DNA from: Pseudomonadota bacterium
Lineage (GTDB): Bacteria > Myxococcota_A > UBA9042
Length of the DNA: 40,992 nt
Direction: 5' to 3'
Assembly (NCBI GenBank): GCA_005777155.1
Contig: SXNM01000288.1
Location: 1 to 40,992, forward strand
A program made the translations under genes and the position numbers. The notes under the pieces are model-generated. The model worked only from the letters and a program-made list of their open reading frames with translations, was not told the origin of the DNA and ran no database searches. Positions 10,513-34,750 of the stretch are shown in pieces; within the stretch, counting starts at the first letter, position 1, and every line of letters starts with the position of its first letter.

Positions 10513-10534
10513 GGCGGTCTCGTCCGCCGCGTGG

Positions 10535-14892: not shown

Positions 14893-15000
14893 GCAACTCC
14901 AGCGGGTGTCGACCCGATGCCCTCGCGCCAGGGTAGATCCGTGCGCGCGGCGAGACTAGCATGAGCGCTGCGCTTTGTCTGGCGCCGGCGGGGGCCCGCA

Positions 15001-16167: not shown

Positions 16168-16419
16168 GTCGCGTGGCCGCGGAGATGCGATCGGTCTGCG
16201 TCGCCTCGGGGAGCTACATGCGTTGGGTCGTGTGCCCTGTTGTGAGCCACGGCGCTTGCGGATAGTGCCGGGACTTGGCTTGAACGCGGTGTTTTTGGCG
16301 TCGGCGGGGTCCTTGCGGCGGTCGCTCGGTGAAATATCGTGCGGTGAAGTGGCGGCGGAATTCGGGAGCCTGGGTTGATTCGGGAGTCTCGCTTGCGAGT
16401 GATTGCGGTGTTTAGTCGT

Positions 16420-16584
16420 TTGAGACGGTCGTTGGACCGTTTCAACGGCGGGATTTGGTGGAGTTGAGACTGTCTTGAGGTTGTCTTGTGACCGTCCTAC
16501 GACCGTTTTGAGACCGTTTTGAGACCGTCTTGAGACCGTTTTGAGACCGTCTTGAGACCGTCTTGAGACCGTCTTGAGACCGTC
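16420..16584. repeat. Tandem array of 15 units of an 11-bp repeat, consensus TTGAGACCGTC (Y at position 11)
   Basis: Read directly from the sequence. Units 16464-16584 are, in order: ttgagactgtc, ttgaggttgtc, ttgtgaccgtc, ctacgaccgtt, ttgagaccgtt, ttgagaccgtc, ttgagaccgtt, then ttgagaccgtc four times. Four degenerate units lie in phase upstream (16420-16463, starting ttgagacggtc). Each good unit contains the 9-bp palindrome AGACCGTCT. The last copy completes the 11-bp perfect palindrome GAGACCGTCTC. Confidence 0.95.
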
Positions 16585-16737
16585 TCCGGTCCCGATGGGT
16601 GGGCCGCTGACTTTATGGCTTACGCGTCGGGTTCTGCCGGGTTGTTGTTGATAGGTGACCGTTTTGTAGCTGGCATCGCCGATTGGCATGGCGATTGCTT
16701 CCTGCAGCGCGGGACCTCTGCCGATGGGTCCTGTCGA

Positions 16738-16892
16738 CTACCCCGTTGGCCAGGGGTAGAGACCGCAGGCCGGGTCGCTGGCGGCACCCCGGGAAACCGG
16801 GGCAGGTGCCGATGGTTGACTGCGCGCTTGCGCAGGTGGGGAGGGCGTCGGGTTTCGCCGGGACTGTCCCGGGAGGGCCCCGAGATCGGGGC
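16738..16892. other. Cluster of five consecutive GC-rich hairpins in non-coding DNA (candidate structured RNA or stacked terminators)
   Basis: Hairpins read from the sequence: CTACCCC/GGGGTAG (16738-16759); CCCCGG-GAAA-CCGGGG nested in GGCA/TGCC (16783-16810); CTGCGC-GCTT-GCGCAG (16820-16835); CCGGGA-CTG-TCCCGG (16858-16872); GCCCCG-AGAT-CGGGGC (16877-16892). Strand and function are unknown. Confidence 0.3.
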
Positions 16893-16965
16893 GGCCATTG
16901 CCTGATTCCGTCGGGGGCTCACCTGACAGTGCCAACCGCGCGCCCTGAAGTCGCAGCGAAGTGCG

Positions 16966-18762: not shown

Positions 18763-19052
18763 CCTCGCTCCTCGGTCGCATGTCGCCGTTCGCCCGCAGC
18801 CTGCCCGCCGCCGTCCACCGGCGCAGGTCCACGCTAGACATTCCGCTTGGGCAGCGTGGCCGCCAACGCCTCGGACTGTACGGTGCCCACGCCACACCTT
18901 CAACCTCTCGGGTCGTGACAACCGGCGGGAATCCAGCGGCGAGCAGCGCGGTTGTGCAGCCTCAAGGGCTGGCGTCCACCGCCTTTCCCTGTATCCTCGC
19001 GGCGGCGGGCGCATCAGTCGGTCGTGACCTCCGCCACGCCCATGGGATCGCG

Positions 19053-20906: not shown

Positions 20907-21867
20907 GTCATCCCAGCTGCACGGCGCGCGGCGACCAGGCGGCCCGGGCGCCCGGAGGACATCGCCGCTGCACCCAACCTCGCCATCCCTGCCATCCCTG
21001 ACAGCCCTGCCAGCTGCGCGCAGCGCCGCCGCCGGGGCCATATTCCCCATTGAAGTCCGGGCGCTGTCGCCGCTGGCCGTAGACACGGGCACGGGCCCCG
21101 ATTTCTCCTTCACCGCGCTGCCCCCGCGGCAGGTCGCGGCGGCCGGATCGGCGCGCACGATCATCGCGATCTCAACCTCGTCCGACGTCGAGCAGGTCGC
21201 CTGGCAGGGCGCCGATGGCAGCCGTAAGGTCTGGCGCCAGCGCTGGCGCCGCGGCCAGCCCCGCCGCTTGCTGCCCGCCGCCCTCGCGATGGCTGGCGCT
21301 GAGGCCCTCGGGCAGGTTCAACTGGTCGTCTGCGACGTCGGACCCGGCAGCTTCACCGGCCTGCGTCTCGGCCTCGCCACCGCCCGCGCCATCGCATGGT
21401 TGGCTGGTGCCGCCACGCGCTCTGTGAAGTCCAGCGCGCTCCTCGGCGCCGCCGCACGCGCGGCCGGAATCCTGGGGCCGCTGCGGGTCTTGCTGCCGAG
21501 CCGCGCCGGCTACGTCTACGACGCCTGGCTGGCACCTGCCGGCCAGGATGAGCCGCCCGGGGTCGAGACGGTCGAGCGCGCGTTGACGGCGGTGCAGGCC
21601 GCGTGGTCCGGCCCGTTCTCGCCCATGGAGACGACGCTGATCCTCAGCCCAGAGATCGAGCACCTCGCCGCGCCGCTGAGCGCGGGCTTCCAGGTCGTGG
21701 TCCTCGTCACGGCTCCAGATGCGGCGTGTCTGCTCGACTCTGACTTGGCGGCTCGACCGGCGGCGAATTGGGCCGCGGTCGTTCCGCACTATGTCGGCAT
21801 CAGCGAAGCGGAGCGCGCCGGCGGCACGACGGCCGACCATCCTGGCCTACCCGTTCAGCGTGGCTGA
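20869..21867 (+). CDS. tsaB: tRNA threonylcarbamoyladenosine biosynthesis protein TsaB (YeaZ-like); true start uncertain
   Basis: Conserved part begins ..TIIAISTSS.. (~21160) and includes the hallmark ..VCDVGPGSFTGLRLGLATARAIAW... The only canonical in-frame start is ATG 20869, which overlaps rseP by 38 nt and adds ~95 Ser/Pro/Ala-rich residues. Third-position GC only becomes gene-like from ~21055. See findings. Confidence 0.7.
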   Translation: MSSASSPRSSRAKSSQLHGARRPGGPGARRTSPLHPTSPSLPSLTALPAARSAAAGAIFPIEVRALSPLAVDTGTGPDFSFTALPPRQVAAAGSARTIIAISTSSDVEQVAWQGADGSRKVWRQRWRRGQPRRLLPAALAMAGAEALGQVQLVVCDVGPGSFTGLRLGLATARAIAWLAGAATRSVKSSALLGAAARAAGILGPLRVLLPSRAGYVYDAWLAPAGQDEPPGVETVERALTAVQAAWSGPFSPMETTLILSPEIEHLAAPLSAGFQVVVLVTAPDAACLLDSDLAARPAANWAAVVPHYVGISEAERAGGTTADHPGLPVQRG

Positions 21868-22047
21868 CGCGACCCGAGTGGCCGAAAGCCGTCGCCCCAT
21901 CGACCGACCCGGCAGCCCACCCTTGGCGCCGCTCGCCGACGGCTATCGTCCCCATTGACTGCGGCCCTCGCCGAGGACTCTGATCTTCTCGGACGCCGCC
22001 AGCAACCAAGCAAGCACGGACTGCCAGCGGCCACTCAGGAGCCAACG

Positions 22048-22395
22048 ATGAACGACGCCACCGCCTGCGACCCGCTCGCCGCAGACCCGCCCCCAAGCGA
22101 CCGGTTGGCGCTCCACCCAGCGGTCGCTTGGCGTCCAGTCGCCGGCGAGATCTTCCTCGTGACGCCGGATCGCGCCATGCACCGCGTCGCCTCGCCCACC
22201 GGCGCCGCCATCGTGAAGGCGCTGGCTGGCCCGGGCGTCGAACGCGGCGACCTAATCGTGCAGCTGACGCAGCGCTTCACCGGGCATCCCTCAGCCATCG
22301 CCGCCGACGTCGACGCGTTCTTGGCCTCGCTCACCGCCGCGGGCATCCTGCGAACCGTCCCGGCTGCTCCTCACGCGCCCCTGAGCGCGCCTTGA
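22048..22395 (+). CDS. PqqD-family protein (stand-alone RiPP recognition element type peptide chaperone)
   Basis: 115 aa from ATG 22048, preceded by AGGAG (22037-22041, 6-nt spacer). The PqqD-like pattern is ..LALHPAVAWRPVAGEIFLVTPDRAMHRVASPTGAAIVKALAGPGVERGDLIVQLTQRFTGHPSAIAADVDAFLASLTAAGILR... That corresponds to a beta-strand region, then the helices 'iw..l.g', then 'Dv..Fl..L...gl'. Confidence 0.75.
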   Translation: MNDATACDPLAADPPPSDRLALHPAVAWRPVAGEIFLVTPDRAMHRVASPTGAAIVKALAGPGVERGDLIVQLTQRFTGHPSAIAADVDAFLASLTAAGILRTVPAAPHAPLSAP

Positions 22396-22576
22396 ACGGC
22401 GATGACACCAAAGTCCCGACGGCCGAGTCACGATTGCGATCGCGTTACGACCGTGACACACTTCACCAGTCTCGACCACAAGCGCGCTCCGTTCACGAGC
22501 AGCGCGCCGGGTCGATGCGACCACTCGGCGGCCCCCCGGCGCGCTGGGTACGGCGACATGCGCCAGAGGTGAGAGG

Positions 22577-25500
22577 ATGATGCGCTCGACAATCAAGTCC
22601 GGCCTTACGACTTGGCTTCCCGCCTCAGAGAGCCATGATTCGGCGCAGAACCAAGCCAAACGTATCAGCCTCCGCGCGCTGCCCTTGCTCGGGCTCCTAC
22701 TGGCGCTGAGCGTCGCGCTCTCCGGCTGCGGCGATGACGATCCGGTCAATCCCGGCGGGGCTGACTCCGCCATCGACGGCGGGGGCGACGCGGGTGCCGA
22801 CGGCGGAATCGACGGCGGCGGGCTCCAGGTCGACAGCACCGGTCCGCAGGCAAAGCTCACCTTCAACATCGCGCACGCCAAGGGCAATGGCTTGGTCGAC
22901 CCGGTCAACGCCCAGATCCTCGACCTAGCGCTCGACAAGTACCCTGGCCTCACCGATCCGGGCTTTCAGGTCGATGTCCAGATCAACGGCATCAACGTGC
23001 CGGACGGCACCGAGATCGACGTCCAGCTCGACGGCAAGTCTGTCGGCAAGGTGACCATGACCGGCGGCACCGCAGAGCTCGCCAAGGTCACGCTGCAGTG
23101 CACCGCGTCGCAGAGCGCGATCTCGGTCCTCGCGACGGTCACGGGCAACCAGGTCAGCGCCACCAAGGCCGCCAAGCTCGACTGCGGCGATGGCTGCACC
23201 GCGGCCCTGGTTCCAGTCAATGGCTGCGTCACCGAAGACGCCGATCCTGCGACCCCCGGCCTCCAGGCGACCTTCCAGGTCACCTCAACCACACCTGACT
23301 GCACCCACGCCCAGTTGCGCGTCACCGACGTCAGCGGCAAGGTTCAGGAGACGCCCAAGGTCTCCCTCGTCGCCGGCAAGGCCACCGTCACCGCGACCGT
23401 CGCCGCCGACACCACGGGCGTCGTCAATGAGACGGCGACCGTCGTCGGCATCGTGATCGACGAGGCCCACGCTGAGCGTCCCAAAGGCGAGTCCGATGCG
23501 CTGGCTGTGCCAATCACCACGGACGCCCCGAGCGTCGCCATCGTGGCGCCCGACAAGGCGCAGCTGACCCTCGCCGATGACGCCGATGGCAAGGACGCCA
23601 ACGGAGTCCAGGTCACCATCGTCGGCACCGCGACCACCATGAAGCCGAGCGATATCGAGAAGCTCGTCGTCAAGGTCGATGGCGTTGAGGTCGGCAAGAC
23701 CTCGATGAAGCTCAACGGAGGCTTCGAGTTCGACCTCAGCTTCGCCACCTCCAAGACGTGGGAGGTCACAGTCGAGGCCACGAACGCATGCGGCCTGTCC
23801 GCCACCGGCAAGCGCAGCTACAAGGTTGCGGCCTCCAAGGCCAAGCTTAAGATCAGCTCGCCGTCCAGCGGCGCCGTGCTCAACGCCAAGAACGACACGG
23901 ACCTGTCGACCGCGACCGTCCTCGAGACCAACTTCGAGGTCGCAATTCAGGGCGCGAACGATGGCGACAAGGTCTCGGTGTTCTGCCGCCCGAACCAGGC
24001 CGGCAGCCCGTATCCCATCACGCCCAACGGCACAGCGACCGTCACTGGCGGCGCCGCGACGCTCTCCCTACCGCTGTCGATTGATGCCACCGCGGTCGGC
24101 ACCAGCGTCGTCTGTGTGGCCCGCGACAACGGCGCCAACCCAGCCGAGAGCCCCGAGGTCGCCCTGACCGTCGGCCTGCCGCCGCCCTGCATGACGATCA
24201 AGCTGCCGAAAGAGGGCTTCGTCACCGCGAGCGCCACCTTGCCCGTCGGCGCGACAGCCACCGGCCTGGAGGGCGCGGTCGTCGAGGCCAAGCTGGCGCT
24301 GGTCGACGGAGCGACGTTGATCGACACGCCGATCGGCAAAATCACCGGCGGCGCCTTCACCGGCGCCCTGGCGCTGACCATTGGCAGCCCACCGCTGCCG
24401 ATCCCGCACGGCACCTATGTCCTCTCGCTCAACGCCGCGGACACGTTCGGCAACGCCGTCAACACCGGCAACTGCTCGACGCTGAGCCGCACCATCGTCG
24501 TCGACCGCAAACCGCCCCTGCTCGCGCTCGCCATTCCGACCAAGCAGGTGCTGGATCCCGCCGGCGACGCCGACTCTGACGTGGTGTCACCTGGCTACCA
24601 GACCAAGGTCGTGTTCAGCGTCGGCGGTGAGAGCGACTTGACGACCTCGACCGTCTGCGCCAGCGTCAACGGCTTCGCGCTGCCTTGCCAGACCATCACG
24701 GGCAACGGCCAGTTGACCTTCTCCTCCGTCACCCTGCAGCCCGGCGCCAACATCATCGTCGCCACGGCCAAGGACGCGCTCGGCAATGTCAGCAAGGACG
24801 TCATCGTCAACATCACGCTGCAGTCCAACGCCGCGATGGTGAAGTGGATCAAGCCTGCGACCAGCACCTTCGTCGCCACCGACTCGCTGCAGCTCGAGAT
24901 CAGCGTCACCGACCAAGCGCTCGGCGTCCCGGTCAACGGCGCCGCGATTACCCTGATCCTCAATGGCAAAGAGACCCCCGGGGTTGTGTTCTCGGCCAGC
25001 GGCAACGGTCTCTACAGCGCCAAGGCGACTGGGCTGGCCTTGGGTCCGAACACCCTGCAGGTCACGGCCTTGCCGGTCGGCGCCGCCACCGAGGGCGTCA
25101 GCCCGCAGCTGACTGTGACCCGCAAGGGCGCTTCGCCGACCATCGCGCTGCAAGGCCTGACGAACGGGGAGATCGTCAACCTCGCCAAGGCCTCATGCAT
25201 CGCTGGCCTCACCGACTGCATCACCAACCTCAACGCAGTGACCACCAACGCCGCTGACGGCAGCACCGCCACGCTCGTCGTGACCTGCGACCTGGCGGCG
25301 GCGGTGACGGCCACCGCCACGGTGACCGGCGGCGTGGCTGGCTTCTCCTTGATCACGTTGCCGCACGGCGCCAAGTGCACGCTGCAGGTCAGCGTCATCG
25401 ATGAGGCCGCGCAGCAGGCCCTCGGCGCCCCGATCGCCGTGTCGATCGACCGCGTCGCGCCGGTGTTCTCGGTGTTCTCGCCGCTGACGACCGCGCTGCT

Positions 25501-28500
25501 CGCGCTCTCCGATGCCAACGGCAACCCCGCCGACGGCGTCCAGGTCGCCACCAACGTCTCCCTCAGCGGCCTCGAGAAGGACCGCCCCATCGTGCTGCAA
25601 GTGTTCAACGACGGTGGCACCAAGGCCTTCGAGGCCACCTCCGCCATGCCGAGCACCGCCACCGCCGGCCAGGCCGTGTCGGTCAACTTCGGCGTCGTGA
25701 CGTACCCGGCTGGCAAGACCATCAAGCTCACCATCACGACCAGCGACCTGGCCGGTAACCCCGCGACCTTCACCGCCACCTTCGTTGTCGTCCCAGACGC
25801 CGCGGAGGTCCGCTTGATCGGCCCGACGTTCGTCGACCCGAAGTCGTGCTCCGTCCACTCCGACTGCGGCACGTCGATCTGCCAGACCGGTAAGTGCACG
25901 ATCCCATGGAACAAGAACACGTTTCGCCAGTTCACGGTCATCGGTCTCGGACTCCTGACCGGCGCCAAGGCGCGCATCTGCTCGGACAACGGCAACGTAA
26001 CCGGGCCGAGCTGCGCCACCGCTGGCACCAAGGAGATCGTGGCACCGACGGACTTCGACGGTGTCCAGGTCGCGCTGCTGGCACAGACGCTCAACGAGGG
26101 CCTGCACACGCTCCACGCCGAGGTCCTGCCGGCGGGCGCGAATGCCGCAACGGCGTCGAACTGGCTGACCTCAATCGCCGCATCGGCGACCGGCAGCAAG
26201 ACGCGCCGCATCTTGTACGACGCGACGCCGCCCGTGGTGGCCGCGGTGACCGCCCCGGCAGCCGCCGGCGTCCCCGCCAAGTGCCTCGCGCGGGCCTCGC
26301 AGCTCTCCTCTGACGGCTTCGCCCCCGGCGGCGTGTTCGTCTTCGCCGCCACCATCGCCAACGACGACGGTCAGGTGGCCATCCTCACTGGCGGGACCAA
26401 GGTCGGCACCGCCAGCTCGGTGTCCAAGGTGGCGTCGGTGCAGATCCAGCTCGCTACCGAAGGCTCGACCACGCTGACCGCCGTCGCCACCGACAGCGTC
26501 GGCAACGAGAGCGCGCCCTTCAATGTCGGCACCTTTGACGTCAATACCATCCCGCCGATCGGCGCCTTTGCCGCCCCCGGAAAGTCCACGCTCATCGTTG
26601 GCGACTCGCTTGATGTCCGCGTCACCTCGCAGTCGACCGACGTCGAGGCCCAGCCTGTGACGCTCAAGGACGGCGACAAGACGATCGGCTCGGTGGCGAT
26701 GACCAAGGGCGAGGCGCTCTTCTCCGACAGCCTCTACAAGACGCTGACCGACGGCACCCACACGTTGACGGCGATCGTCACGGACAGCTGCGCCAACCCG
26801 GCGACCATCGCGACCTCTCCAGCGTTGGTGACGGTGGACACCTCGGCGCCGACGGCCTCGATCTCTGGGCCGACCCAGGGCCAGACCTTCGGCGACGCCA
26901 ACGACGCCAAGGCCGACGTCAGCGGCTACCAGATCGCCGCCACGTTCACCACCGGCGGCGGCACGTCGTGGACGCTTGACCTCGGCACCGACTGCGACGC
27001 GGCCTTCGCCAACTGCGCTGGCTTCGCTGGCGCCGGCAGCGGCAACGTCAGCAACGATGGCGGCGCCGAGCCGACGCAGTTCGTGACCATTCCGTTCGGC
27101 AAGTCCAAGCAGTACGTCCTGCGCCTGACCGTGACCGACGCCAATGGCAACAAGACGGTTGTGGACCGCGGCTTCATCGTCGAGCTCTCTGGCTGCTTGG
27201 TCGGTCTGACGGGCCTGCCGGCCTCTGGCATCGTCAACACCAGCGCCTGCGCCACCGCCGGCCAGAACTGCGCCAGCGCCAAGCTCACGCTGACTGCCTC
27301 ATTTGTCGGCCCCTGCGGCACGGTCAGCGCGGTCGAGCTGCGGGTCGATGGCGCGCTCTCCGCCTCCAAGGCGCCGACGGGCAGCGCCGCCGGCTTCGAT
27401 CTCACCGTCACCGGCGGCACGAGTCCCAAGGTGGAGGCCAAGGTCCTTGAGGGCGCGACCTCCAAGGGCACCAGCGGCGAGACCACCATCAAGGTCGACC
27501 TGACCCTGCCGGTCGTCAGCTTCATCGCCGGCACCGTGCTGGGCGTCGCCACGCCGGCCAACACCGCGCCCGCCCTGGCCGGCAAGGCCAAGGACGCCGA
27601 CGGCGCCAAGAACGGCCACCAGGCCCACCTGTTGCTGCAGGTGGTCGACGCCGGCCTGACGGGTGGCAAGCTCACGAGCGTGAAGGAGACGGTCGGCAAC
27701 AGTGACCTCTCCAGCTCGCTCGGCCTGCCGCTGACCTACGCTGCGAACGGCACGGTGACGACCGAGCTGAAGTTCGTGACGGCGAAAGAGGACGCCAACA
27801 ACACCATCGAGGCCACCGTGGCGGACGCCGCCGGCAACGTCGGCAAGGCCACGCTGACCCTGGAGGTGGACTGGACCTCGCCGGGCGCCGTCACCCTGAG
27901 CGACCTCAAGGCAGCCGACCTCAATGCCCGCCGGCCCTTCGCCAAGCTCAGCTTCAAGGCACCGGCGGAGGATGGCAATTCAGGAGGCGCTGCGGCCAGC
28001 TACGAGGTCGTCTACTCGCGCTCGGCGATCGCGAGCACCACCGAGTTCGAGGCCGCCTGCAAGGCGACAAGCCTGCCGAAGTCCGCCGTCCCGACGCCGG
28101 GCGCGCCGGGTGCCGACCAGGTGGTCGTGGTCGAGGGTCCCGACGGTCGCGCCGCTGCCGAGGCGTGCAAATTCGCGCCTCTGACCGACAACGGCGTCGG
28201 CAAGTACCACTTCGCCGTCCGCGCCGTCGATGCTGCTGGCAACGCAGGGGCGATCAGCAACGTCGTCTCGACCTCCGACCTCCGCCTGCGCTACGCCAAG
28301 ATCACCTCGGCGACGGCGCCCTGGAACACCGCCACCTCCTTCACCAACGTCGTCGGCGTCGGCGACCTCAACGGCGACGGGCTTGGCGACTTCGGCTTTG
28401 GCGGCAACACCAACACCAACAAGTTCTGCGTCGTCTACGGTCACGCGGACAGCAGCTTGCAGGTGCCCGAGGTGAACATCGCCGCCGCCTCCGCCGCGAC

Positions 28501-29734
28501 TCACACCTGCTTCGACAACTTGACGGCGTTCGGCCTGTCCACGGCGGCGCCTGTCGACATCAACGGCGATGGCATTCACGACCTCGTGGCCGCGAACGGC
28601 CATGGCACGGCGTCCGCGCCGCGCTCGGTGCTCATCTTTCTCGGCGAGAAGGGCAAGCCGATCACCACGACGGCGGCGGTCACGATCTCCAACATCTCCC
28701 ACTCGTTGACCTATGGCGTCCGCGCGTTGACCTCGGCGGGCAACTTCAACGGCGACAAGACCTCGGGTGGCAAGCCGATCGGCGACATCGCCTTCACGAC
28801 CCGCCCAGCAGGCGCCGTGACCATCGACCGCGTCATGGTGGTTCCGGGCAACGCCGCGTGGTCGACCAGCGCACCCGTCACCATCGACATCAACGACGCA
28901 GCCGCGTTGGCGACCCACAACGTGCTCATCATCACGCAGCCGGCTGCGGCGGCGTCTGTCAGCTTTGGCTCCTTCCTGGCCGGTCCAGGCAACGTCCTGA
29001 CCGACGCCGGCGACGCCCAGTTCGATGACCTGGTGATTCGCCGTCCCTCGCCGACGGAGGGTCTGTTCGTGGTCAAGGGGCGAACCTGGACCGGCACGCA
29101 GACCCTGACGACCACGCCGACGCTCGATGGCTCGGGCTCTGCCGACGCGACGTCGATTCGCATCTTCGGGCCGCAGTACGGCACCAACCTCAGCGGCTTC
29201 GGCTTCGCCACCGACGTGTCGTTCGACGGCGACGCGATCCCGGACCTCGTCGCCACCGAGGCGGAGACGGGCAAGCCGACGGCGATTGTCTGGATGCGGG
29301 GCTCGCTGCTCAGCAAGGCGATTGGCACATCGGTCAACGTCAAGGGCACGCTGGTGGCGGGCTCGTCGGCGCCCCAGGTGTTCTCGCACGCCTTCGGCCA
29401 CGCGGTCGTCGACTATGGGCGCCTGACGTCCAGCGTCGGCGACTTCGGCGACCAGGGCGGCGGCGCCAAGGCGTTTGTCCACGGCTTGCCGTCGTGGACG
29501 CCGGGCGGACAGCTCACCGTCAGCGTCCGGCAGCCCGTGACGCGCGTCGACGGGTTGGTGAAGGACATCGCGTCATTCCACCACGCTGACTTGGTGATCG
29601 GAAATCCCTTCACCCCTGGCTTGGCGACCATGGGCAACGCGACGCTCAATGGCGTTGGCGACTTCAACGGCGATGGATTCCAAGACTTCGTGGTGGGCAC
29701 GAGCACCACCGGCTACCTGATCCTCGTCTACTGA
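22577..29734 (+). CDS. Giant (2385 aa) surface lipoprotein: tandem Ig-like/Big-type domains, fibronectin-III-like segment, C-terminal FG-GAP/VCBS (integrin-alpha-like) repeats
   Basis: Lipobox ..LALSVALSGC (Cys codon 22727-22729). Long Thr/Val/Ala/Gly-rich beta-type repeats, each ~90-100 aa (..TAKDALGNVS.., ..TSDLAGNPAT.., ..ATDSVGNESAP.., ..VTDANGNKT.., ..VADAAGNVGKA.., ..AVDAAGNAGA..). A small Cys-knot, CSVHSDCGTSICQTGKC, lies at about 25834-25910. C-terminal FG-GAP motifs GDLNGDGLGDFGFGG, VDINGDGIHDLVAANG, FDGDAIPDLVATE, GDFNGDGFQDFVVGTS. Confidence 0.85.
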   Translation: MMRSTIKSGLTTWLPASESHDSAQNQAKRISLRALPLLGLLLALSVALSGCGDDDPVNPGGADSAIDGGGDAGADGGIDGGGLQVDSTGPQAKLTFNIAHAKGNGLVDPVNAQILDLALDKYPGLTDPGFQVDVQINGINVPDGTEIDVQLDGKSVGKVTMTGGTAELAKVTLQCTASQSAISVLATVTGNQVSATKAAKLDCGDGCTAALVPVNGCVTEDADPATPGLQATFQVTSTTPDCTHAQLRVTDVSGKVQETPKVSLVAGKATVTATVAADTTGVVNETATVVGIVIDEAHAERPKGESDALAVPITTDAPSVAIVAPDKAQLTLADDADGKDANGVQVTIVGTATTMKPSDIEKLVVKVDGVEVGKTSMKLNGGFEFDLSFATSKTWEVTVEATNACGLSATGKRSYKVAASKAKLKISSPSSGAVLNAKNDTDLSTATVLETNFEVAIQGANDGDKVSVFCRPNQAGSPYPITPNGTATVTGGAATLSLPLSIDATAVGTSVVCVARDNGANPAESPEVALTVGLPPPCMTIKLPKEGFVTASATLPVGATATGLEGAVVEAKLALVDGATLIDTPIGKITGGAFTGALALTIGSPPLPIPHGTYVLSLNAADTFGNAVNTGNCSTLSRTIVVDRKPPLLALAIPTKQVLDPAGDADSDVVSPGYQTKVVFSVGGESDLTTSTVCASVNGFALPCQTITGNGQLTFSSVTLQPGANIIVATAKDALGNVSKDVIVNITLQSNAAMVKWIKPATSTFVATDSLQLEISVTDQALGVPVNGAAITLILNGKETPGVVFSASGNGLYSAKATGLALGPNTLQVTALPVGAATEGVSPQLTVTRKGASPTIALQGLTNGEIVNLAKASCIAGLTDCITNLNAVTTNAADGSTATLVVTCDLAAAVTATATVTGGVAGFSLITLPHGAKCTLQVSVIDEAAQQALGAPIAVSIDRVAPVFSVFSPLTTALLALSDANGNPADGVQVATNVSLSGLEKDRPIVLQVFNDGGTKAFEATSAMPSTATAGQAVSVNFGVVTYPAGKTIKLTITTSDLAGNPATFTATFVVVPDAAEVRLIGPTFVDPKSCSVHSDCGTSICQTGKCTIPWNKNTFRQFTVIGLGLLTGAKARICSDNGNVTGPSCATAGTKEIVAPTDFDGVQVALLAQTLNEGLHTLHAEVLPAGANAATASNWLTSIAASATGSKTRRILYDATPPVVAAVTAPAAAGVPAKCLARASQLSSDGFAPGGVFVFAATIANDDGQVAILTGGTKVGTASSVSKVASVQIQLATEGSTTLTAVATDSVGNESAPFNVGTFDVNTIPPIGAFAAPGKSTLIVGDSLDVRVTSQSTDVEAQPVTLKDGDKTIGSVAMTKGEALFSDSLYKTLTDGTHTLTAIVTDSCANPATIATSPALVTVDTSAPTASISGPTQGQTFGDANDAKADVSGYQIAATFTTGGGTSWTLDLGTDCDAAFANCAGFAGAGSGNVSNDGGAEPTQFVTIPFGKSKQYVLRLTVTDANGNKTVVDRGFIVELSGCLVGLTGLPASGIVNTSACATAGQNCASAKLTLTASFVGPCGTVSAVELRVDGALSASKAPTGSAAGFDLTVTGGTSPKVEAKVLEGATSKGTSGETTIKVDLTLPVVSFIAGTVLGVATPANTAPALAGKAKDADGAKNGHQAHLLLQVVDAGLTGGKLTSVKETVGNSDLSSSLGLPLTYAANGTVTTELKFVTAKEDANNTIEATVADAAGNVGKATLTLEVDWTSPGAVTLSDLKAADLNARRPFAKLSFKAPAEDGNSGGAAASYEVVYSRSAIASTTEFEAACKATSLPKSAVPTPGAPGADQVVVVEGPDGRAAAEACKFAPLTDNGVGKYHFAVRAVDAAGNAGAISNVVSTSDLRLRYAKITSATAPWNTATSFTNVVGVGDLNGDGLGDFGFGGNTNTNKFCVVYGHADSSLQVPEVNIAAASAATHTCFDNLTAFGLSTAAPVDINGDGIHDLVAANGHGTASAPRSVLIFLGEKGKPITTTAAVTISNISHSLTYGVRALTSAGNFNGDKTSGGKPIGDIAFTTRPAGAVTIDRVMVVPGNAAWSTSAPVTIDINDAAALATHNVLIITQPAAAASVSFGSFLAGPGNVLTDAGDAQFDDLVIRRPSPTEGLFVVKGRTWTGTQTLTTTPTLDGSGSADATSIRIFGPQYGTNLSGFGFATDVSFDGDAIPDLVATEAETGKPTAIVWMRGSLLSKAIGTSVNVKGTLVAGSSAPQVFSHAFGHAVVDYGRLTSSVGDFGDQGGGAKAFVHGLPSWTPGGQLTVSVRQPVTRVDGLVKDIASFHHADLVIGNPFTPGLATMGNATLNGVGDFNGDGFQDFVVGTSTTGYLILVY

Positions 29735-29756
29735 TCGACCTCTGCAGGAGAGCTCC

Positions 29757-29942
29757 ATGGCAAGCGAAAACCGTGACCGTGACGCAACAGTAGGAAACCT
29801 CAGCGGGGATCCTGCGGCGACGCCGTGGGTGGCACCGACCTTGGAGTCCAGCCCGCCGCGCGACTGGGCCGAGCTGCAGAGCTGCACCTTTGGGCCGGGC
29901 TGTGATCCAGAGAACGACCCACCGGGCGATGCCTGCGTGTAG
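29757..29942 (+). CDS. Small ORF (61 aa), candidate RiPP precursor peptide with a Cys/Asp/Pro-rich C-terminus
   Basis: MASENRDRDATVGNLSGDPAATPWVAPTLESSPPRDWAELQSCTFGPGCDPENDPPGDACV. AGGAGAG at 29746-29752 lies 6 nt (from GGAG) before ATG 29757. The ORF starts 22 nt after the giant gene's stop and ends 43 nt before the HPr-kinase-like gene. Third-position GC (~72% by my count) is lower than in neighbouring genes, so coding status is not certain. Confidence 0.5.
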   Translation: MASENRDRDATVGNLSGDPAATPWVAPTLESSPPRDWAELQSCTFGPGCDPENDPPGDACV

Positions 29943-29985
29943 GCAGACGGCGCCCAGGCTGGAGCGCAGGCGCTCGGTCCCGGGA

Positions 29986-30918
29986 ATGGTCAGTCCGATG
30001 GCAGAGGTAGGCCGACAGAGGAGTTGGGCCTTCGGCGACACTGGAGAAGGCCGGACCCTGATCCGTGGACTCTGGCACACTCCGACGAGCGCCTTCGAGA
30101 AGCGAATCGCGACCATGCGGGTGCTCGACGCGGTCGTGGCGTTCGACGCCCATGATGAACGCTTCGAACGCGCCCGTTGGCACGACGCCCCCGGTGACAC
30201 GCCCCCCTGCGTCGCCGAAGTGCGCATCACGGCCGGCCCTCGACCGGACTGGGCAGCTGGCGGCGAGGCTTGCGAGCGGCTCGATGGCGGCGGCTACCTC
30301 TTCCGGGCCCAAGGCGGGCGCTTGGAGTTGGCAGCGAGCGGTGAGTCGGCGCTGGCCGAGGTCTGGGATCCCGGCACCAAGTGGGACATCATCTTCCATC
30401 TCTGGCGCTTAGGCTGGCGCTGGCTCCTGCACGAATGCCAGCGGCGTGGCGCGCTGGAGCTGCACGCGGCGTCTTTCCTCGACGGCGACGGTGCGTGGAT
30501 CGTCGCCGGCGACTCCGGCGCTGGCAAGACCACCCTGTGTGGCCGGCTCGACCCTGAGGTCCTCCTCAACGAGGAGTTCGCGCTCGCTGCCCCGACTCGC
30601 GCCGGCGGCTACGAGGCCTGGTGGTTTCCTCACGCCCGTGCGCCGACCGAGCCCCGACCGCCGAGATCGCCGCTGCGAGGGATCGCCTATCTGACGCCGC
30701 GCCGCGATCGGACGGCGGCGCAGCGCCTGTCGCCTCCGGCGGCGCTGGCGTGGCTCTCGGCTCATGCGCTGGGCCCGCTCGATGCGTCGCCTGAGCGCTG
30801 GCTGGAGTCGGTGGCGACGATGGCACTGAACGTGCCGGTCATGGCGCTGGACCACCACCTCGGCAGCCCGGTCGCCGCCGTGGCTGCGGCCCTGCGCGCG
30901 GCGACGGAGGTCGAGTGA
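29986..30918 (+). CDS. HPr-kinase-like P-loop protein (HprK C-terminal-domain fold; probable peptide/protein kinase)
   Basis: ..LELHAASFLDGDGAWIVAGDSGAGKTTLCGRL.. matches the HprK C-domain P-loop pattern (h-h-h-GDSGxGKS/T); P-loop at 30508-30531. Start taken at ATG 29986 (alternative 29998), because track start 29890 would overlap the small ORF. Stop TGA 30916-30918 overlaps the next gene's GTG. Confidence 0.6.
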   Translation: MVSPMAEVGRQRSWAFGDTGEGRTLIRGLWHTPTSAFEKRIATMRVLDAVVAFDAHDERFERARWHDAPGDTPPCVAEVRITAGPRPDWAAGGEACERLDGGGYLFRAQGGRLELAASGESALAEVWDPGTKWDIIFHLWRLGWRWLLHECQRRGALELHAASFLDGDGAWIVAGDSGAGKTTLCGRLDPEVLLNEEFALAAPTRAGGYEAWWFPHARAPTEPRPPRSPLRGIAYLTPRRDRTAAQRLSPPAALAWLSAHALGPLDASPERWLESVATMALNVPVMALDHHLGSPVAAVAAALRAATEVE

Positions 30919-32096
30919 TCGAGATCGTCAACCCCATCGCCCAGGCCTGGCAGCGCTTGCTGACCGAGCAGGGCATTCCCATTCGGGCCCACCTCGATAT
31001 CACCTACCGCTGCGACCTCGACTGCGAGCACTGCTACCTCGACGACAAGGACGATCGCCGCGAGTTGGCGACCGAGGAGTGGCTGCGGGTCGTGGATGAG
31101 CTCGCCGACTGGGGCGTCCAGCGCCTCGGCTGGAGCGGCGGCGAGGTCTTCGCGCGCGCGGACTTCTTCACGCTGCTGGAGCACAGCGTCCGTCGCGGCT
31201 TCATCAACATCATCAAGACGCACGCTGGCAACATCGACCGCGACCTGGCGCTGCGCCTGCGTGCGCTCGACGTGCAGCGCATCGACATCAGCCTCTACTC
31301 GCTGTCGGCGCCAGTCCACGACGGCATCACGCGCATTCCTGGCTCCTTGAGCGCGACCTTGCGGGGAATCGCCGCGCTGCGCGCCGTGGGGCACATCGTC
31401 TCTGTGCAGGTGATGCCGTTTCGCGCCAATATGCTCGAGATTGAAGACATGATCGCCTTTCTGGAGGGCCTCGGCTGCGTGGCGTCGATCGCTCCTGGGC
31501 TCAAGGCCGACAACGGCGGTGGCTTGGCGGTGCTCGACCTCGACCTCAGCTACGAGGAGCGGATCGAGCTAGAGCGGATCCGGCTGCGCGTGGCGCTTCG
31601 GCAGGGCCACAAGGGCTGGCGGCCTGGGGTGGTGGCGGCCGAGGATCAGCCCTGCGAGATCGGCACCGGCAGGATCTACTTCGGCCCAGACGGCGCCATC
31701 TTCCCTTGCGTGACCTACCCGTCAGCCATCGGTCACGTGCGGTCGGGGCCGATCCGGGCGCAGTGGGACGCCTCGCCGCTGCGGCGCCAGTTGGCGGCCT
31801 GGACCAACGCCAAGCGCACCAGCTGCCTCTCTTGCGGCGCCTCGGCCGGCTGCGGCTACTGCGCCGGCGCTGCCTTCAAGGCGACAGGCGACCACGACGT
31901 CGCGCCGCCCTACTTCCACGAGCGCTCGCGCGCCAAGGCTGTCGCCTACGAGCTGGAGCGCGGCGTGGCGCTCGGCGACGCCTTCTGGGCTTCGGTGCCG
32001 ACCGGCGAGGCGCCCGTCGTGAAGCGGCGCGGCCAGTTTCCGATCTTTCGCGCGCAGAAGACCGGCAAGGCCGCGCTCGCCGCAGGTGAGCGCTGA
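30915..32096 (+). CDS. Radical SAM enzyme with C-terminal SPASM/Twitch-type auxiliary cluster domain
   Basis: CDLDCEHC (CX3CX2C, 31011-31034). SAM-binding GWSGGEVF. C-terminal Cys pattern C247-X12-G-X4-C265 (CEIGTGRIYFGPDGAIFPC), then C304-X2-C-X5-C-X2-C316 (CLSCGASAGCGYC), spanning 31653-31862. GTG start 30915 sits in a GTGA overlap with the upstream gene. Confidence 0.85.
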   Translation: MIEIVNPIAQAWQRLLTEQGIPIRAHLDITYRCDLDCEHCYLDDKDDRRELATEEWLRVVDELADWGVQRLGWSGGEVFARADFFTLLEHSVRRGFINIIKTHAGNIDRDLALRLRALDVQRIDISLYSLSAPVHDGITRIPGSLSATLRGIAALRAVGHIVSVQVMPFRANMLEIEDMIAFLEGLGCVASIAPGLKADNGGGLAVLDLDLSYEERIELERIRLRVALRQGHKGWRPGVVAAEDQPCEIGTGRIYFGPDGAIFPCVTYPSAIGHVRSGPIRAQWDASPLRRQLAAWTNAKRTSCLSCGASAGCGYCAGAAFKATGDHDVAPPYFHERSRAKAVAYELERGVALGDAFWASVPTGEAPVVKRRGQFPIFRAQKTGKAALAAGER

Positions 32097-32107
32097 GCGC
32101 CGAGCCG

Positions 32108-32521
32108 ATGGCGCGGCATGACCGCCGCCGTTGGCGTCTGCAGGGCGGCTCCATGCGTCCGCTCGGCCCGGGGTGGGAGGCAGAGGTCGACGCCAGCGAC
32201 ACCGGCAAGACCGCGCTCGCCGCCGGGGACCTCGTCTGCTATCTCGGGCTCGATGGGCGCGCGGTCGTGCACCGGCTCCACGCCCTGGAGGGCGGTTGGC
32301 TGCTGGTGCAGGGCGACACCGCAGGGCCCGAGCCGCCCCTGCCGCAGAGCGCCATCCTCGGGCGCGTGAGCGCTCTCTGGTGGCGGGGGCTGCGGCTGCC
32401 CTTGCCGACGCGCGGCCCCGCGGCGCCTCTCGTGCGTCGCAGCGGCCTGCTCTGGTCGGCGATTGCGCCAGTGATTCAGCGGGTATGGGGCCACGATGTA
32501 TGGAAGCGATCGAATGTTTGA
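32108..32521 (+). CDS. S24/S26-family serine peptidase (signal-peptidase-I/LexA-like fold) lacking an N-terminal membrane anchor
   Basis: ..LQGGSMRPLGPG.. (GxSMxP nucleophile motif, Ser15 codon 32150-32152). ..AAGDLVCYLG.., ..AVVHRLHAL.. (HR motif as in SipW/Sec11-type S26B), ..LLVQGDTAG.., ..AILGRV... An in-frame TGA at 32087-32089 shows the N-terminus cannot be longer. Starts 11 nt after the rSAM stop. Confidence 0.65.
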   Translation: MARHDRRRWRLQGGSMRPLGPGWEAEVDASDTGKTALAAGDLVCYLGLDGRAVVHRLHALEGGWLLVQGDTAGPEPPLPQSAILGRVSALWWRGLRLPLPTRGPAAPLVRRSGLLWSAIAPVIQRVWGHDVWKRSNV

Positions 32522-32594
32522 CAGCGAGGGCTTGCTGTGATCACGATCGGTTGCGGCTCGGGCAGGTCTCTGTCCCGTCCCGCAGGAGGCCGAC

Positions 32595-33530
32595 GTGGCT
32601 GTGACCCAATCCCTGATGGCGCGACGACGTCGCTCGGGCGTTGCCCTGGCGCTGGCGATTGGCGGCCTCGGTGGCTGTGGCGGCGCCCGACTGGAGACGC
32701 TCGAGACCGAGGTGAGCCGCCAGCGCGAAGAGCTGTCTGAGCTGCGCCGCAACCAGGCAGCGCAGCGCGTCCAGTTCGACGAGTTCCGCAATCGACTCGT
32801 TGTGTTGCAAGACAAGCTCGAGTCGGAGCGACTGGCAGCTCAGCGCGCGGCGCGGGCCATGGAGCCTCTGCCGCAGCTGCCGCATGTCGTCGTCGGCCGC
32901 GGGGATGGTGACGTCCGCGTCGATGGCAGCGACGGTGTCGCCGCTCCGCCGCCGGCCGCTGCGCCGCGCTCTGTGGTCATCGGCGCCGATGGTGTCGCTC
33001 GCGACGTTCGGCCCGGTGTCGGTGCGGACGCCGGGGAGGGTCGCTCGGGCGCTGCAGGTGCCACGTCGCCGCGCCGGCCGAAGGTCGCCGCTGCAGGGCC
33101 GAGTGACGCCGAGGCGGCGCGTCCGCCGCAGGAGGGCAACACAGCCGAGGAGGCGGCCGCGGCCTTGTACCGCGACGCCAAGTCCGTCCTCGACGCCGGT
33201 CGGCTCGACGAGGCCCGCGTCGGCTTTGAGCGCTTCTTGGAGCAGAACCCCGAGCATCCGCTGGCAGACAACGCGCTGTACTGGATCGGCGAGACTTGGT
33301 ACGCGAAGTCCCTCTGGCTCAAGGCGGCTCGGGTTTTTGGCGAGGTGGTGACGCGTTTCCCGCGCGGCAACAAGGTCCCGGACGCGATGCTGAAGACGGC
33401 CCTTTGCTACGACCGCTTGGGCGAGGTGCAACTCTCGCGCGAAGTGCTCGGCCAGCTCTCTCGGCTCTACCCGGCTTCCCCTGCCGGTGAGCAGGCGCGT
33501 GATCGGCTGCAGCGGGCGGAGGAGCGATGA
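32595..33530 (+). CDS. YbgF/CpoB-like lipoprotein (N-terminal coiled coil, C-terminal TPR)
   Basis: GTG 32595 is preceded by AGGAGG (32584-32589). Lipobox ..LAIGGLGGC. Coiled coil LETLETEVSRQREELSELRRNQAAQR... C-terminal YbgF-type TPR: ALYRDAKSVLDAGRLDEARVGFERFLEQNPEHPLADNALYWIGETWY..FGEVVTRFPRGNKVPDAMLKTALCYDRLG... No tol-pal genes are adjacent. Confidence 0.7.
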   Translation: MAVTQSLMARRRRSGVALALAIGGLGGCGGARLETLETEVSRQREELSELRRNQAAQRVQFDEFRNRLVVLQDKLESERLAAQRAARAMEPLPQLPHVVVGRGDGDVRVDGSDGVAAPPPAAAPRSVVIGADGVARDVRPGVGADAGEGRSGAAGATSPRRPKVAAAGPSDAEAARPPQEGNTAEEAAAALYRDAKSVLDAGRLDEARVGFERFLEQNPEHPLADNALYWIGETWYAKSLWLKAARVFGEVVTRFPRGNKVPDAMLKTALCYDRLGEVQLSREVLGQLSRLYPASPAGEQARDRLQRAEER

Positions 33531-34750
33531 CGACCACCGTCCCAACAGCGCGCGGACTCCAGCTCCGCGCGGTCGGCCGCAACGCCGTGGCGAAACTCAA
33601 GCAGACGTTGCTGCGTCGCATCGGCGCGCCCCTTGCGCTGCCCACGTTGGCGTTGGCTATGGCGCTGATGTCACCAGCGACCTCTCGCGGTCAGGTGCCC
33701 TGGATGGTGGAGAGCGAGGGTCCGACCATCAAGATGGAGGAGACCGCCACAACTGGCGAGCGCATCTACGTCGTGCAGCCAGGCGATACGCTGTGGAGCA
33801 TCGCTGAGGGGTTCTACGACGAGCCGTGGTACTGGCCGTCGCTGTGGTCGTACAACCCGCAGATCACAAACCCGCACCAGATCTATCCCGGCGACGTCGT
33901 GTACCTCAGCCGCCGGCGGGCGCCGATGACCAAGCAGAAGGCCATCACCTTCGCGGCGTCACGCTACGAGCGGCGGCGGCCGACGCCGGTGACGCTGGCG
34001 CGGCGCGTCGGCTACATCTCTGCCCGCGACTATCGCGAGAGCGGCGTCATCGAGGGTAGCCGCGAAGAGCGCGCGATGCTCGGCACGCTTGACGAGGTCT
34101 ACACGCGATTTGGCCTCAAGCGCTGCAGCGAGGTCGAGAAGGCCTCGGTCGCTGACGCCGCACGTGCCGACGCCGAGGGCAAGGGCGAAGACGTCGAAGT
34201 CGCTGGCCCCTGCGTGCGCGACGGCGATCGCTACGTCGTCTACCGGCTTGAGCGGCCCGTGGTGCACCCGAACACCGGCAAGACAGTGGGATATAAGATC
34301 AACTTCGTAGGCGAGGCCGAGGTGGTCAACACCAAGCGCAACATCGTCGGCATGGTCCTGACCAAATCGCACAGCGAGATTACCCGCGGCGATCTCATGA
34401 CCAACCTGTTCGAGCCGCTGACGAGCGTGACGCCTCGCACCAATGACCAGGAGGTGGTGGCGACCATCATCGACTTCCACCACGAGAGCGGCGCAGTCGG
34501 GCAGCACAGCTACATCTATCTCGACAAGGGCGCAGCGCACGGCGTCAAGCGCGGCAACCGCTTCGAGCTGGTGTGGCGCGGCGACGGCCTGCGCGGCACG
34601 GCTGTGCGCGACATCAAGGACTACCCGGACGAGCAGATCGGCATCGCGATGGTGGTGGAGGCCTATGACCAGCACTCGCTCGCCTACCTCTCGGCGTCGG
34701 TGCGCGAGATCGAGCGCGGCATGGTGGCGGTGATGCCGCCCGGCTTTTAG
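33527..34750 (+). CDS. LysM domain-containing (peptidoglycan-binding) protein
   Basis: ATGA overlap with the upstream gene (33527-33530), preceded by GGAGGAG. Signal-like N-terminus. LysM motif YVVQPGDTLWSIAEGFYDEPWYWPSLWSYNPQITNPHQIYPGDVVYL. Confidence 0.8.
   Translation: MTTTVPTARGLQLRAVGRNAVAKLKQTLLRRIGAPLALPTLALAMALMSPATSRGQVPWMVESEGPTIKMEETATTGERIYVVQPGDTLWSIAEGFYDEPWYWPSLWSYNPQITNPHQIYPGDVVYLSRRRAPMTKQKAITFAASRYERRRPTPVTLARRVGYISARDYRESGVIEGSREERAMLGTLDEVYTRFGLKRCSEVEKASVADAARADAEGKGEDVEVAGPCVRDGDRYVVYRLERPVVHPNTGKTVGYKINFVGEAEVVNTKRNIVGMVLTKSHSEITRGDLMTNLFEPLTSVTPRTNDQEVVATIIDFHHESGAVGQHSYIYLDKGAAHGVKRGNRFELVWRGDGLRGTAVRDIKDYPDEQIGIAMVVEAYDQHSLAYLSASVREIERGMVAVMPPGF

Follow-up and report, generated by a model that had tools for sequence, protein, structure and literature searches.

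A probable leader-dependent peptide-maturation locus combining a radical SAM/SPASM enzyme, a ScmC-type P-loop protein and an anchorless S26-type peptidase

Results

We analysed the 40,992-nt contig SXNM01000288.1 (assembly GCA_005777155.1; deposited as Pseudomonadota bacterium, placed by GTDB in Myxococcota_A), called the window below, which matches metagenome-assembled genome GCA_005790405.1, has a G+C content of ~70% and carries at 22048-32521 a probable maturation system for a peptide made on the ribosome and modified after translation (RiPP). The unit consists of six plus-strand genes. It opens with a stand-alone PqqD-family protein of 115 aa (22048-22395), likely the leader-binding RiPP recognition element (RRE) of the cassette, and continues with a giant lipoprotein-type protein of 2385 aa (22577-29734), which has a lipobox LSGC, Ig-like arrays and a C-terminal FG-GAP beta-propeller. 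The giant open reading frame (ORF) ends 22 nt short of a 61-aa ORF (29757-29942), whose ATG has an AGGAG Shine-Dalgarno sequence 6 nt on its 5' side and whose homologues predict a precursor peptide made of a leader and a Cys-containing core. Downstream lie a ScmC-family P-loop protein (gene 2, 310 aa, 29986-30918) with a phosphoenolpyruvate carboxykinase (PEPCK)/HprK-like fold, by sequence and model a probable ATP-dependent phosphotransferase; a radical S-adenosylmethionine (rSAM)/SPASM enzyme (gene 3, 393 aa, GTG start, 30915-32096); and an anchorless protein, probably a serine peptidase of the S24/S26 fold and Ser/His type (gene 4, 137 aa, 32108-32521), the candidate leader peptidase.

An earlier note on this DNA, made from its letters alone, had described a cassette of the last four of these genes. 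Their coordinates, shared strand and junctions (43 nt between precursor and ScmC genes, a 4-nt GTGA overlap between ScmC and rSAM genes, 11 nt between rSAM and peptidase genes) are all as it gave them, and the 61-aa ORF does end in the 19 residues CTFGPGCDPENDPPGDACV. While these genes are real, the unit is larger than the note had drawn it, comprising six genes with the giant lipoprotein gene included. The PqqD gene, which lies 7.4 kb upstream of the four-gene group and which the note had also pointed out, does belong to the system: its product matches Pfam PqqD (PF05402) at E 2.7e-8, and its counterpart adjoins the rSAM gene in other phyla. The coding status of genes 2-4 is supported by their third-position G+C (GC3) of 0.82-0.90. 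A terminator and promoter scan gave nothing exceeding shuffled expectation, and neither Rfam nor tRNA scans of the window gave a match.

The same gene set, with a homologous small ORF, was found again in dozens of genomes. Scanning one genome per species with the rSAM alignment yielded 80 loci, whose ORFs were searched with purpose-built hidden Markov models (HMMs); gene-set counts below refer to these 80 species-level loci, and precursor counts to 89 loci. The carriers, all of them metagenome-assembled genomes, represent 80 species or more, spread over Myxococcota, Acidobacteriota, Rokubacteria/Methylomirabilota and Binatia. A ScmC gene adjoined the rSAM gene in 79/80 loci and a member of the 137-aa peptidase family did so in 70/80; PqqD was found in at least 55/80, a lower bound given by a weak HMM; and a homologous small ORF occupied the equivalent position in ~75/89 loci. 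The co-occurrence of a small Cys-containing ORF and an S24/S26 peptidase with the rSAM/HprK-like pair, raised in the earlier note, was thus recovered across genomes. The gene order is pqqD - giant - precursor - scmC - rSAM - pep in Myxococcota (n = 21) and a compact precursor - pep - scmC - pqqD - rSAM in the other phyla (n = 59), the PqqD gene of Acidobacteriota and Rokubacteria standing directly upstream of the rSAM gene. As the gene set was kept while its order was rearranged between phyla, the co-occurrence reflects function and not inherited synteny alone.

Contigs with rSAM homologues showed a longer syntenic series, namely RseP - TsaB - PqqD - giant protein (~2350-2400 aa) - small ORF (54-76 aa) - ScmC - rSAM/SPASM - 132-144-aa protein - tetratricopeptide repeat (TPR) protein - LysM protein. 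Giant orthologues (~2350-2950 aa) stood directly upstream of the precursor gene in all 21 Myxococcota species loci, and a PqqD orthologue held the same position in 15 of them, the other six including contigs that end short of it. Three loci (L022, L024 and L040) kept the Myxococcota order though their RseP/TsaB and TPR/LysM neighbours were undetected. The PqqD gene and the 2385-aa lipoprotein gene belong to the Myxococcota version of the cassette. An NTP_transf_5 nucleotidyltransferase gene (PF14907, E 1.5e-61) lay downstream in 29/59 non-Myxococcota loci and in 0/21 Myxococcota loci.

Two side observations concern individual loci. Three metagenome-assembled genomes titled 'Klebsiella pneumoniae' or 'uncultured Enterobacteriaceae' (L013, L014 and L017; G+C 58-69%) carry the Myxococcota-type syntenic locus, and their organism labels look wrong. 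Locus L040 has a second, unrelated cassette ~3 kb downstream on the opposite strand (14280-19982, minus), with PqqD, an HprK/ScmC-like protein, two family-2 glycosyltransferases and NTP_transf_5, resembling an 'HprK-related kinase A/B' neighbourhood.

The small ORF belongs to a precursor family with a conserved leader motif. In the window, the predicted leader spans residues 1-42 (29757-29882) and contains the recognition motif W24-V-A-P-T-L29 (29826-29843), while the predicted core spans residues 43-61 (29883-29939). Across 72 distinct homologous sequences from at least four phyla, a hydrophilic N-terminus, often with [KR][KR]P, is followed by [W/Y]-x-x-P-x-[VILF], by 10-16 residues that often read ..AFE..AL.., and by Cys - x(1-14) - Cys with 0-10 further residues. 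Alignment A6 shows no variation in the motif Pro and in two of the Cys (P27, C43 and C60 in the window, where the W24-x-x-P27-x-L29 motif lies 19 residues ahead of the first Cys). Cores contain one to three Cys; those of Myxococcota are rich in Asp/Glu/Asn/Pro beside Cys, often with an acidic residue just ahead of the second one, and have a variable C-terminus. The earlier note's pairing of a small ORF with the rSAM and HprK-like genes hence proved to be a conserved one, in which the ORF adjoining homologous rSAM/ScmC pairs retains both the leader motif and the Cys-containing core.

The Acidobacteriota/Rokubacteria precursors are more uniform. Their leader has a fixed length of 21 residues, KKPYEKPSFRYEQVFVTTAL[S/A/T], after which the core begins with CGK... 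(48-51 sequences); Y-18, P-15, T-5, A-3 and L-2 are invariant, a hydrophobic residue (Φ) stands at -13, and position -1 is small (S/A/T/G) in 50/51. C1, K3 and the second Cys of the core are likewise invariant, and a C-terminal Ser is present in 51/51. Precursors generally have a small residue just before the first Cys (in Myxococcota S, G, T, A, P or V), and an invariant Ala at -3 is confined to the Acidobacteriota/Rokubacteria set, in which A-x-[SAT] ahead of the Cys reads as a classical AxA-like site of the signal-peptidase type.

The rSAM enzyme bears out what the earlier note had read from its motifs. In Pfam the protein matches Radical_SAM at E 3.4e-18 and SPASM at 22.2 bits, above the latter's gathering score (21.5), and it has the CX3CX2C motif CDLDCEHC at residues 33-40 (31011-31034), SGGE at 74-77 and six C-terminal Cys (C247, C265, C304, C307, C313 and C316; 31653-31862). 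The C-terminal pattern C-x12-G-x4-C, then C-x2-C-x5-C-x2-C, is invariant together with CDLDCxHC and SGGE in alignment A4 of 26 homologues; 27 rSAM homologues were 28-53% identical. All NCBIfam families matched 3- to 10-fold under their cut-offs. Among the 10 PDB chains listed at E <= 1e-5, the closest by sequence were the peptide-modifying enzymes SkfB (7e-34), PqqE (3e-28) and SuiB (1e-18), and none was an anSME-type sulfatase maturase, so that, in this list, the refuting case named in the note, a grouping with anSME-type maturases, did not arise. With a radical SAM core beginning near residue 25, the enzyme has no fused N-terminal RRE and needs a separate one; the PqqD protein has weak NCBIfam matches to lasso_PqqD and PQQ_PqqD. 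Four homologues (P0020, P0021, P0022 and P0025; A4 columns 401-428) carry a C-terminal extension ending in a Gly/Cys-rich tail (for example AAGCSTG-CP and GRQAGGCS-S) that the window enzyme lacks.

Gene 2, which the earlier note had called an HprK-type protein, retains only part of that description. The P-loop is present (Walker A G175-D-S-G-A-G-K-T-T183, 30508-30534), yet no Hpr_kinase_C (PF07475) match was found at E <= 0.1, and family-level identity with HprK is therefore denied: the likeness to HPr kinase reaches as far as the shared PEPCK/HprK P-loop superfamily and the GxSGxGK[ST] signature. Its precomputed Pfam annotation is PF27840 ScmC, a Pfam scan matched generic P-loop models only, and the two NCBIfam matches were below cut-off (ScmC, E 7.9e-6, 25.4 vs 125 bits; HprK_rel_A, E 1.2e-3). 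A word-indexed homology search recovered only the protein itself; an exhaustive HMMER search of 1.84 billion proteins yielded only 219 representative clusters. The 65 homologues scanned matched ScmC (46), HprK-related kinase B (34) and HprK-related kinase A (28), never above cut-offs, with a best ScmC (TIGR04249) E-value of 1.4e-13, still sub-cut-off, and TIGR00679 matched one of four homologues scanned individually (P0116, E 6e-3). H160, G180, K181 and T183 never vary, and G175 and S177 hardly do. In the window, LLNEE follows the Walker A motif GDSGAGKTT, its acidic pair ~15 residues on (homologue consensus GxSGAGKSTL..R.....L.DE); we take this pair to resemble the HprK ADD motif. The AlphaFold model (predicted local distance difference test, pLDDT, 85.6) has its best PDB matches among ATP-dependent PEP carboxykinases (E 2.6e-7, template-modelling score ~0.5) and not HprK, and profile matches to PEPCK agree with these. 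One 408-aa homologue (P0092) has a ScmC-like domain (~108-214) fused to an archaeal-type signal-peptidase-like domain (296-371).

The serine peptidase that the earlier note had identified from GxSMxP can be typed more closely, as a candidate Ser/His S26 enzyme of the endoplasmic reticulum (ER)/archaeal, SipW-like kind, though the window protein itself has no family match. Ser15 (32150-32152) lies in GGSMRPL, and His55-Arg56 stands where bacterial signal peptidase has Lys-Arg. Six orthologues in alignment A1 share G13-x-S15-M16-x-P18-L19, G40-D41, H55-R56, G69-D70-T71 and G85-R86-V87, invariant motifs whose sequence corresponds to boxes B-E of S26 signal peptidases. Orthologues matched NCBIfam sigpep_I_arch at E 1.2e-7, 2.3e-9, 6.3e-6 and 1.3e-12 (26-48 bits against a cut-off of 51.85; the best, 47.9 bits at E 1.3e-12, was also below it), and an acidobacterial one matched Pfam Peptidase_S24 at 24.9 bits (gathering score 23.3). 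A profile search against PDB sequences placed signal peptidase I on top at a weak E of 0.28, with H55 aligned to the catalytic Lys, and the predicted model, built on a shallow 4-sequence alignment (pLDDT 66.7), matched LexA, lambda cI, 186 repressor, UmuD, SpsB and SipA. On the orthologues, the invariant motifs and this low-confidence fold match, gene 4 probably encodes a peptidase. The family (118-189 aa) has no hydrophobic anchor and ends in a basic amphipathic helix, so that the enzyme should be cytoplasmic. The public gene call starts at Met16 (122 aa), which would lose the invariant catalytic Ser15; the ATG at 32108 is supported by conservation.

The giant protein matches Pfam Big_13, Big_3_3, FG-GAP and FG-GAP_3 and has a signal peptide with its lipobox; its FG-GAP domain covers residues ~1940-2385. 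Close to the N-terminus, most orthologues show X-X-[GAS]-C, which resembles a lipobox, and the C-terminal end of nearly all of them reads GDFNGDG-x(13-21)-[VI]-[LIV]-[VIA]-Y. In the other phyla, a ~700-aa secreted, weakly beta-propeller-like protein is encoded in 36/59 loci, and in 34 of these 36, with both genes found, it ends <=500 nt upstream of the precursor. Jackhmmer detected no homology between the acidobacterial secreted protein and the giant protein, and neither has an NCBIfam name. The mature N-terminus of the giant protein (CGDDDPVNPGG...) is compositionally like the peptide cores, a likeness that probably reflects just linker-like low complexity.

Comparison of close relatives revealed a divergent or exchanged block, precursor-ScmC-rSAM, within conserved flanks. 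Between the window and the closest genome, L003, amino-acid identity was 88% for the TPR protein, 87% for LysM, 77% for the peptidase and 71% for PqqD, as against 63% for the giant protein, 42% for rSAM and 33% for ScmC, with no alignment of the precursor. At the DNA level the two are alignable up to 28797 and from 32129, and between these points only in the rSAM core (30983-31369). A second genome, L092, is closer to the window in rSAM (51%), yet lower in the flanks (LysM 76%, TPR 62%, peptidase 45%), and its core GGCVDPPNDQD resembles the window's CDPENDPP in the common pattern C-x-DP(P/E)ND. Since the window rSAM is nearer to that of L092, with its similar core, than to that of L003, the rSAM sequence appears to track the core sequence, suggesting enzyme-substrate co-evolution.

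The 3' end of the giant gene takes part in this divergence. Compared with L003, the giant protein is 84-89% identical close to its N-terminus and 36% identical over its final 150 residues, and within the window/L003/L092 trio its last ~450 aa show the same reversal, following rSAM and precursor and not the flanks. Across 13 genomes, the whole giant protein tracked the flanks (0.74-0.85), as did its C-terminal domain (Spearman 0.80 with LysM); that domain correlated with rSAM at 0.40, and the remainder of the protein at 0.28-0.29. The cassette genes correlated among themselves (rSAM-PqqD 0.63) and scarcely with the flanks (ScmC-TPR 0.06). With a link this weak across the 13 genomes (0.40 vs 0.28), we do not claim that the C-terminal domain co-varies with rSAM, and regard co-variation of the giant protein with the cassette as no more than a lead.

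Elsewhere in the window, a group of genes at 9457-14955 is unrelated to the cassette: an FkbM-type methyltransferase (9457-10512, plus), a 'Gate' nucleoside-recognition membrane protein (10535-12082, minus) and a 1027-aa ORF (11872-14955, minus) with a radical SAM domain, matched in two stretches, and a GFO_IDH_MocA oxidoreductase domain. The G+C fraction has a low of 0.637 at 16-17 kb, and the long ORFs at 15001-16167 (plus), 15559-16689 (minus) and 16966-19014 (minus) have no Pfam match.

Discussion

We consider it likely that the locus at 22048-32521 encodes a leader-dependent, RiPP-type peptide-maturation system. The RiPP-like pathway proposed in the earlier note is now supported by comparative evidence, namely the gene set kept through changes of order, the precursor family and its leader motif, the ScmC-peptidase fusion and the want of an RRE on the rSAM enzyme, to which we add the apparent tracking of core sequence by rSAM sequence.

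In the pathway that we infer, from its chemical steps to the cleavage site and the fate of the product, PqqD would probably bind the [W/Y]xxPxΦ leader and present the peptide to the three enzymes, by analogy with lasso B1 RREs: in lasso systems the PqqD-like B1 protein binds YxxPxL at -17 to -12 and, in addition, stimulates the kinase of the cluster (PMC10368454). The rSAM/SPASM enzyme would modify the Cys-containing core, and the likeliest chemistry would be the formation of Cys-derived thioethers to nearby Asp, Glu, Asn or other residues; in a related case, QhpD makes Cys-Asp/Glu thioethers in the QhpC small subunit, after which a serine protease removes the leader (PMC7876137). ScmC would carry out an ATP-dependent step, probably phosphoryl transfer. 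Finally, the cytoplasmic Ser/His S26-type peptidase may cut at the small residue before the first Cys, in the window between Ser42 and Cys43, freeing ~19 residues as the product. In Acidobacteriota and Rokubacteria, the C-terminal Ser and the NTP_transf_5 gene of about half of the loci mirror the phosphorylation and glycosylation of the C-terminal Ser in lasso peptides (PMC8498205).

Several observations weigh against this interpretation. The window small ORF found no match in Pfam and NCBIfam scans, and neither did the window peptidase, whose structural model has low confidence (pLDDT 66.7) and a Foldseek E of only ~6e-3. The peptidase was undetected in 2/21 Myxococcota loci (L021 and L023, with 8.3 and 4.7 kb of downstream sequence) and in 8/59 other loci, several of them with ample flanks. 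The SPASM region has six conserved Cys, not seven or eight, and the L092 precursor (5455-5598) has a single Cys in its core and one in its leader, so that two core Cys are not universal. The C-terminal Ser that serves lasso-type kinases as phosphorylation site is unconserved in Myxococcota precursors. Furthermore, no exporter gene forms part of the Myxococcota cassette, in the window or in related loci, which leaves secretion unexplained.

An extension of the RiPP reading, which we hold only tentatively and rate as fairly unlikely, is that the modified peptide is no free secreted natural product and serves the large secreted protein encoded with it as a dedicated partner, be it ligand, small subunit or a cofactor derived from the peptide. 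The giant gene lies between pqqD and precursor in 21/21 Myxococcota loci, even where other neighbours were undetected, and the ~700-aa secreted protein takes a place near the precursor in most loci of the other phyla. The lack of an exporter and the vertically inherited synteny with envelope genes (RseP, a CpoB-like TPR protein, LysM) would be unusual for an antibiotic-type RiPP, and in the window/L003/L092 trio the last ~450 aa of the giant protein go with rSAM and precursor. Pyrroloquinoline quinone (PQQ), used with beta-propeller dehydrogenases, offers a precedent. So does quinohemoprotein amine dehydrogenase (QHNDH), of which QhpC is the gamma subunit (PMC7876137). Adjacency alone is no proof of interaction, however; across the 13 genomes the giant C-terminal domain tracks the flanks and its rSAM link is weak, 23/59 non-Myxococcota loci have no ~700-aa secreted protein, and the acidobacterial protein has no detectable homology to the giant one. 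A more specific version for Myxococcota, equally speculative, would make peptide and giant lipoprotein a peptide-plus-receptor pair (ligand, small subunit or recognition tag) and not a classical antibiotic RiPP, with the precursor-ScmC-rSAM block, possibly together with the FG-GAP propeller, as a diversifying or exchangeable specificity module in a vertically inherited envelope locus.

The embedding of the giant gene in the Myxococcota cassette could also mean that the enzymes mature the giant protein itself, the small ORF being accessory or irrelevant. ER-type signal peptidases such as SipW do process specific matrix proteins. We regard this as improbable, as the same four enzymes and precursor occur without the giant protein in 59 loci of other phyla, the precursor has an RRE-type leader motif and a conserved cleavage-like site, and the anchorless, hence cytoplasmic, peptidase contrasts with the lipoprotein signal peptide of the giant protein. 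Even less credit goes to the idea that the small ORF is a chance reading frame in a GC-rich spacer and that the enzymes use another substrate. Its GC3 of 0.73, under that of its neighbours, and its lack of a family match would fit, but the idea is effectively refuted by 72 distinct homologues, which occupy the corresponding place in four or more phyla and agree in motif, length and Cys pattern, by a Shine-Dalgarno sequence, and by independent annotation of the ORF by gene callers in public records. Membership in a named system (lasso, SynChlorMet (SCM), GeoRSP, mycofactocin, PQQ or sactipeptide/ranthipeptide) is very improbable as well. It could draw on weak sub-threshold matches to ScmC, ScmE, GeoRSP_rSAM, MftC, PqqE, StsB and AlbA, on the YxxP-type leader with its lasso-like PqqD, and on the acidobacterial kinase, NTP_transf_5 and C-terminal Ser, as in phosphorylated and glycosylated lasso peptides (PMC8498205). 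Yet NCBIfam scores lie 3- to 10-fold under curated cut-offs, the operon has neither lasso cyclase nor B2 transglutaminase-type protease, there is one rSAM where SCM has two (ScmE and ScmF), and the precursor lacks C-terminal Gly-Tyr or Glu/Tyr motifs. On these cut-offs and missing components we rejected lasso, SCM, GeoRSP, mycofactocin and PQQ membership. As the earlier note had held, no named RiPP class can be assigned: no NCBIfam model reaches its cut-off, and defining genes of the nearest systems are missing.

The RiPP-type reading hence makes the locus a candidate new RiPP family, with an unreported set of rSAM/SPASM enzyme, PqqD, PEPCK/HprK-fold ScmC and cytoplasmic Ser/His S26 peptidase. 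Our literature searches found no description of the cassette, and the main text of two large rSAM-RiPP surveys was without kinase, signal peptidase, Acidobacteria or Myxococcota. The reading would also supply the orphan ScmC family with a probable substrate and link the older SynChlorMet and 'HprK-related kinase' cassettes to leader recognition of the lasso type. The literature searches turned up no other leader peptidase that has the signal-peptidase fold and lacks a membrane anchor, and none is known to us. A role at the cell surface is suggested by the invariable association with a 2400-aa lipoprotein and by the sharp divergence of the precursor/ScmC/rSAM block.

Comparison with known systems

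The SCM cassette (TIGR04249 ScmC, TIGR04248 ScmD, TIGR04250 ScmE and TIGR04251 ScmF) likewise combines a ScmC-family protein, a PqqD-family protein and a PqqE-like rSAM/SPASM enzyme, with ScmC as the top-scoring family for gene 2 and 46/65 homologues. The scores remain far under the cut-offs, however (ScmC 25.4 vs 125 bits, ScmE 74.2 vs 400); ScmF is absent from the 25 families listed for the window rSAM and reached 64 bits with an acidobacterial orthologue (cut-off 400). The present cassette has a single rSAM, not two, as well as an S26-type peptidase and an identifiable precursor. SCM is not known to have an identified precursor, and a literature search on SynChlorMet found no paper mentioning it.

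Lasso clusters with a split B1 protein, an HPr-kinase-like K and a nucleotidyltransferase N (paeninodin, pseudomycoidin, Bradymonadales bsf) likewise pair a stand-alone PqqD with a P-loop kinase-like protein. Their leader motif at -17 to -12 (PMC10368454) compares with Y-x-x-P-x-Φ at about -18 to -13 here, and the likeness extends to the NTP_transf_5 gene and the invariant C-terminal Ser (PMC8498205) in the Acidobacteriota/Rokubacteria version only, the Myxococcota version having neither the Ser nor the N gene. In contrast to lasso clusters, the cassette has no cyclase and no B2 cysteine protease, and has instead the rSAM/SPASM enzyme and S26-type peptidase; no asparagine-synthetase-like cyclase or B2 transglutaminase-type protease was found among the ORFs scanned at 15001-34750 or in related loci.

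In sactipeptide, ranthipeptide and QhpC-type systems (SkfB, AlbA, PapB, QhpD), an rSAM/SPASM-type enzyme acts on a Cys core after a leader, as is predicted here, and QHNDH maturation shares the combination of rSAM, dedicated serine protease and large periplasmic partner (PMC7876137). Matches to the thioether systems stayed below cut-off (StsB 82 of 625 bits, AlbA 67 of 850, SkfB 40 of 300), and thioether chemistry is predicted here. In the literature searches, ScmC and S26 peptidase were not known as components of sactipeptide, ranthipeptide or QhpC-type systems.

With the ER/archaeal signal peptidase I (S26B; Sec11, SipW; TIGR02228), the peptidase has in common boxes B-E (GxSMxP, GD, [H]R, GD[TN], GRV), with His for Lys; TIGR02228 is the best family for its orthologues, and the predicted cleavage site likewise has a small residue. 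It differs from these enzymes in being anchorless, in its length of 118-189 aa, in its basic amphipathic C-terminal helix and in being encoded within a peptide-modification cassette. Overall, the RiPP logic of the locus is a known one, whereas its enzyme combination and precursor family are new and its fixed association with large secreted proteins is unusual.

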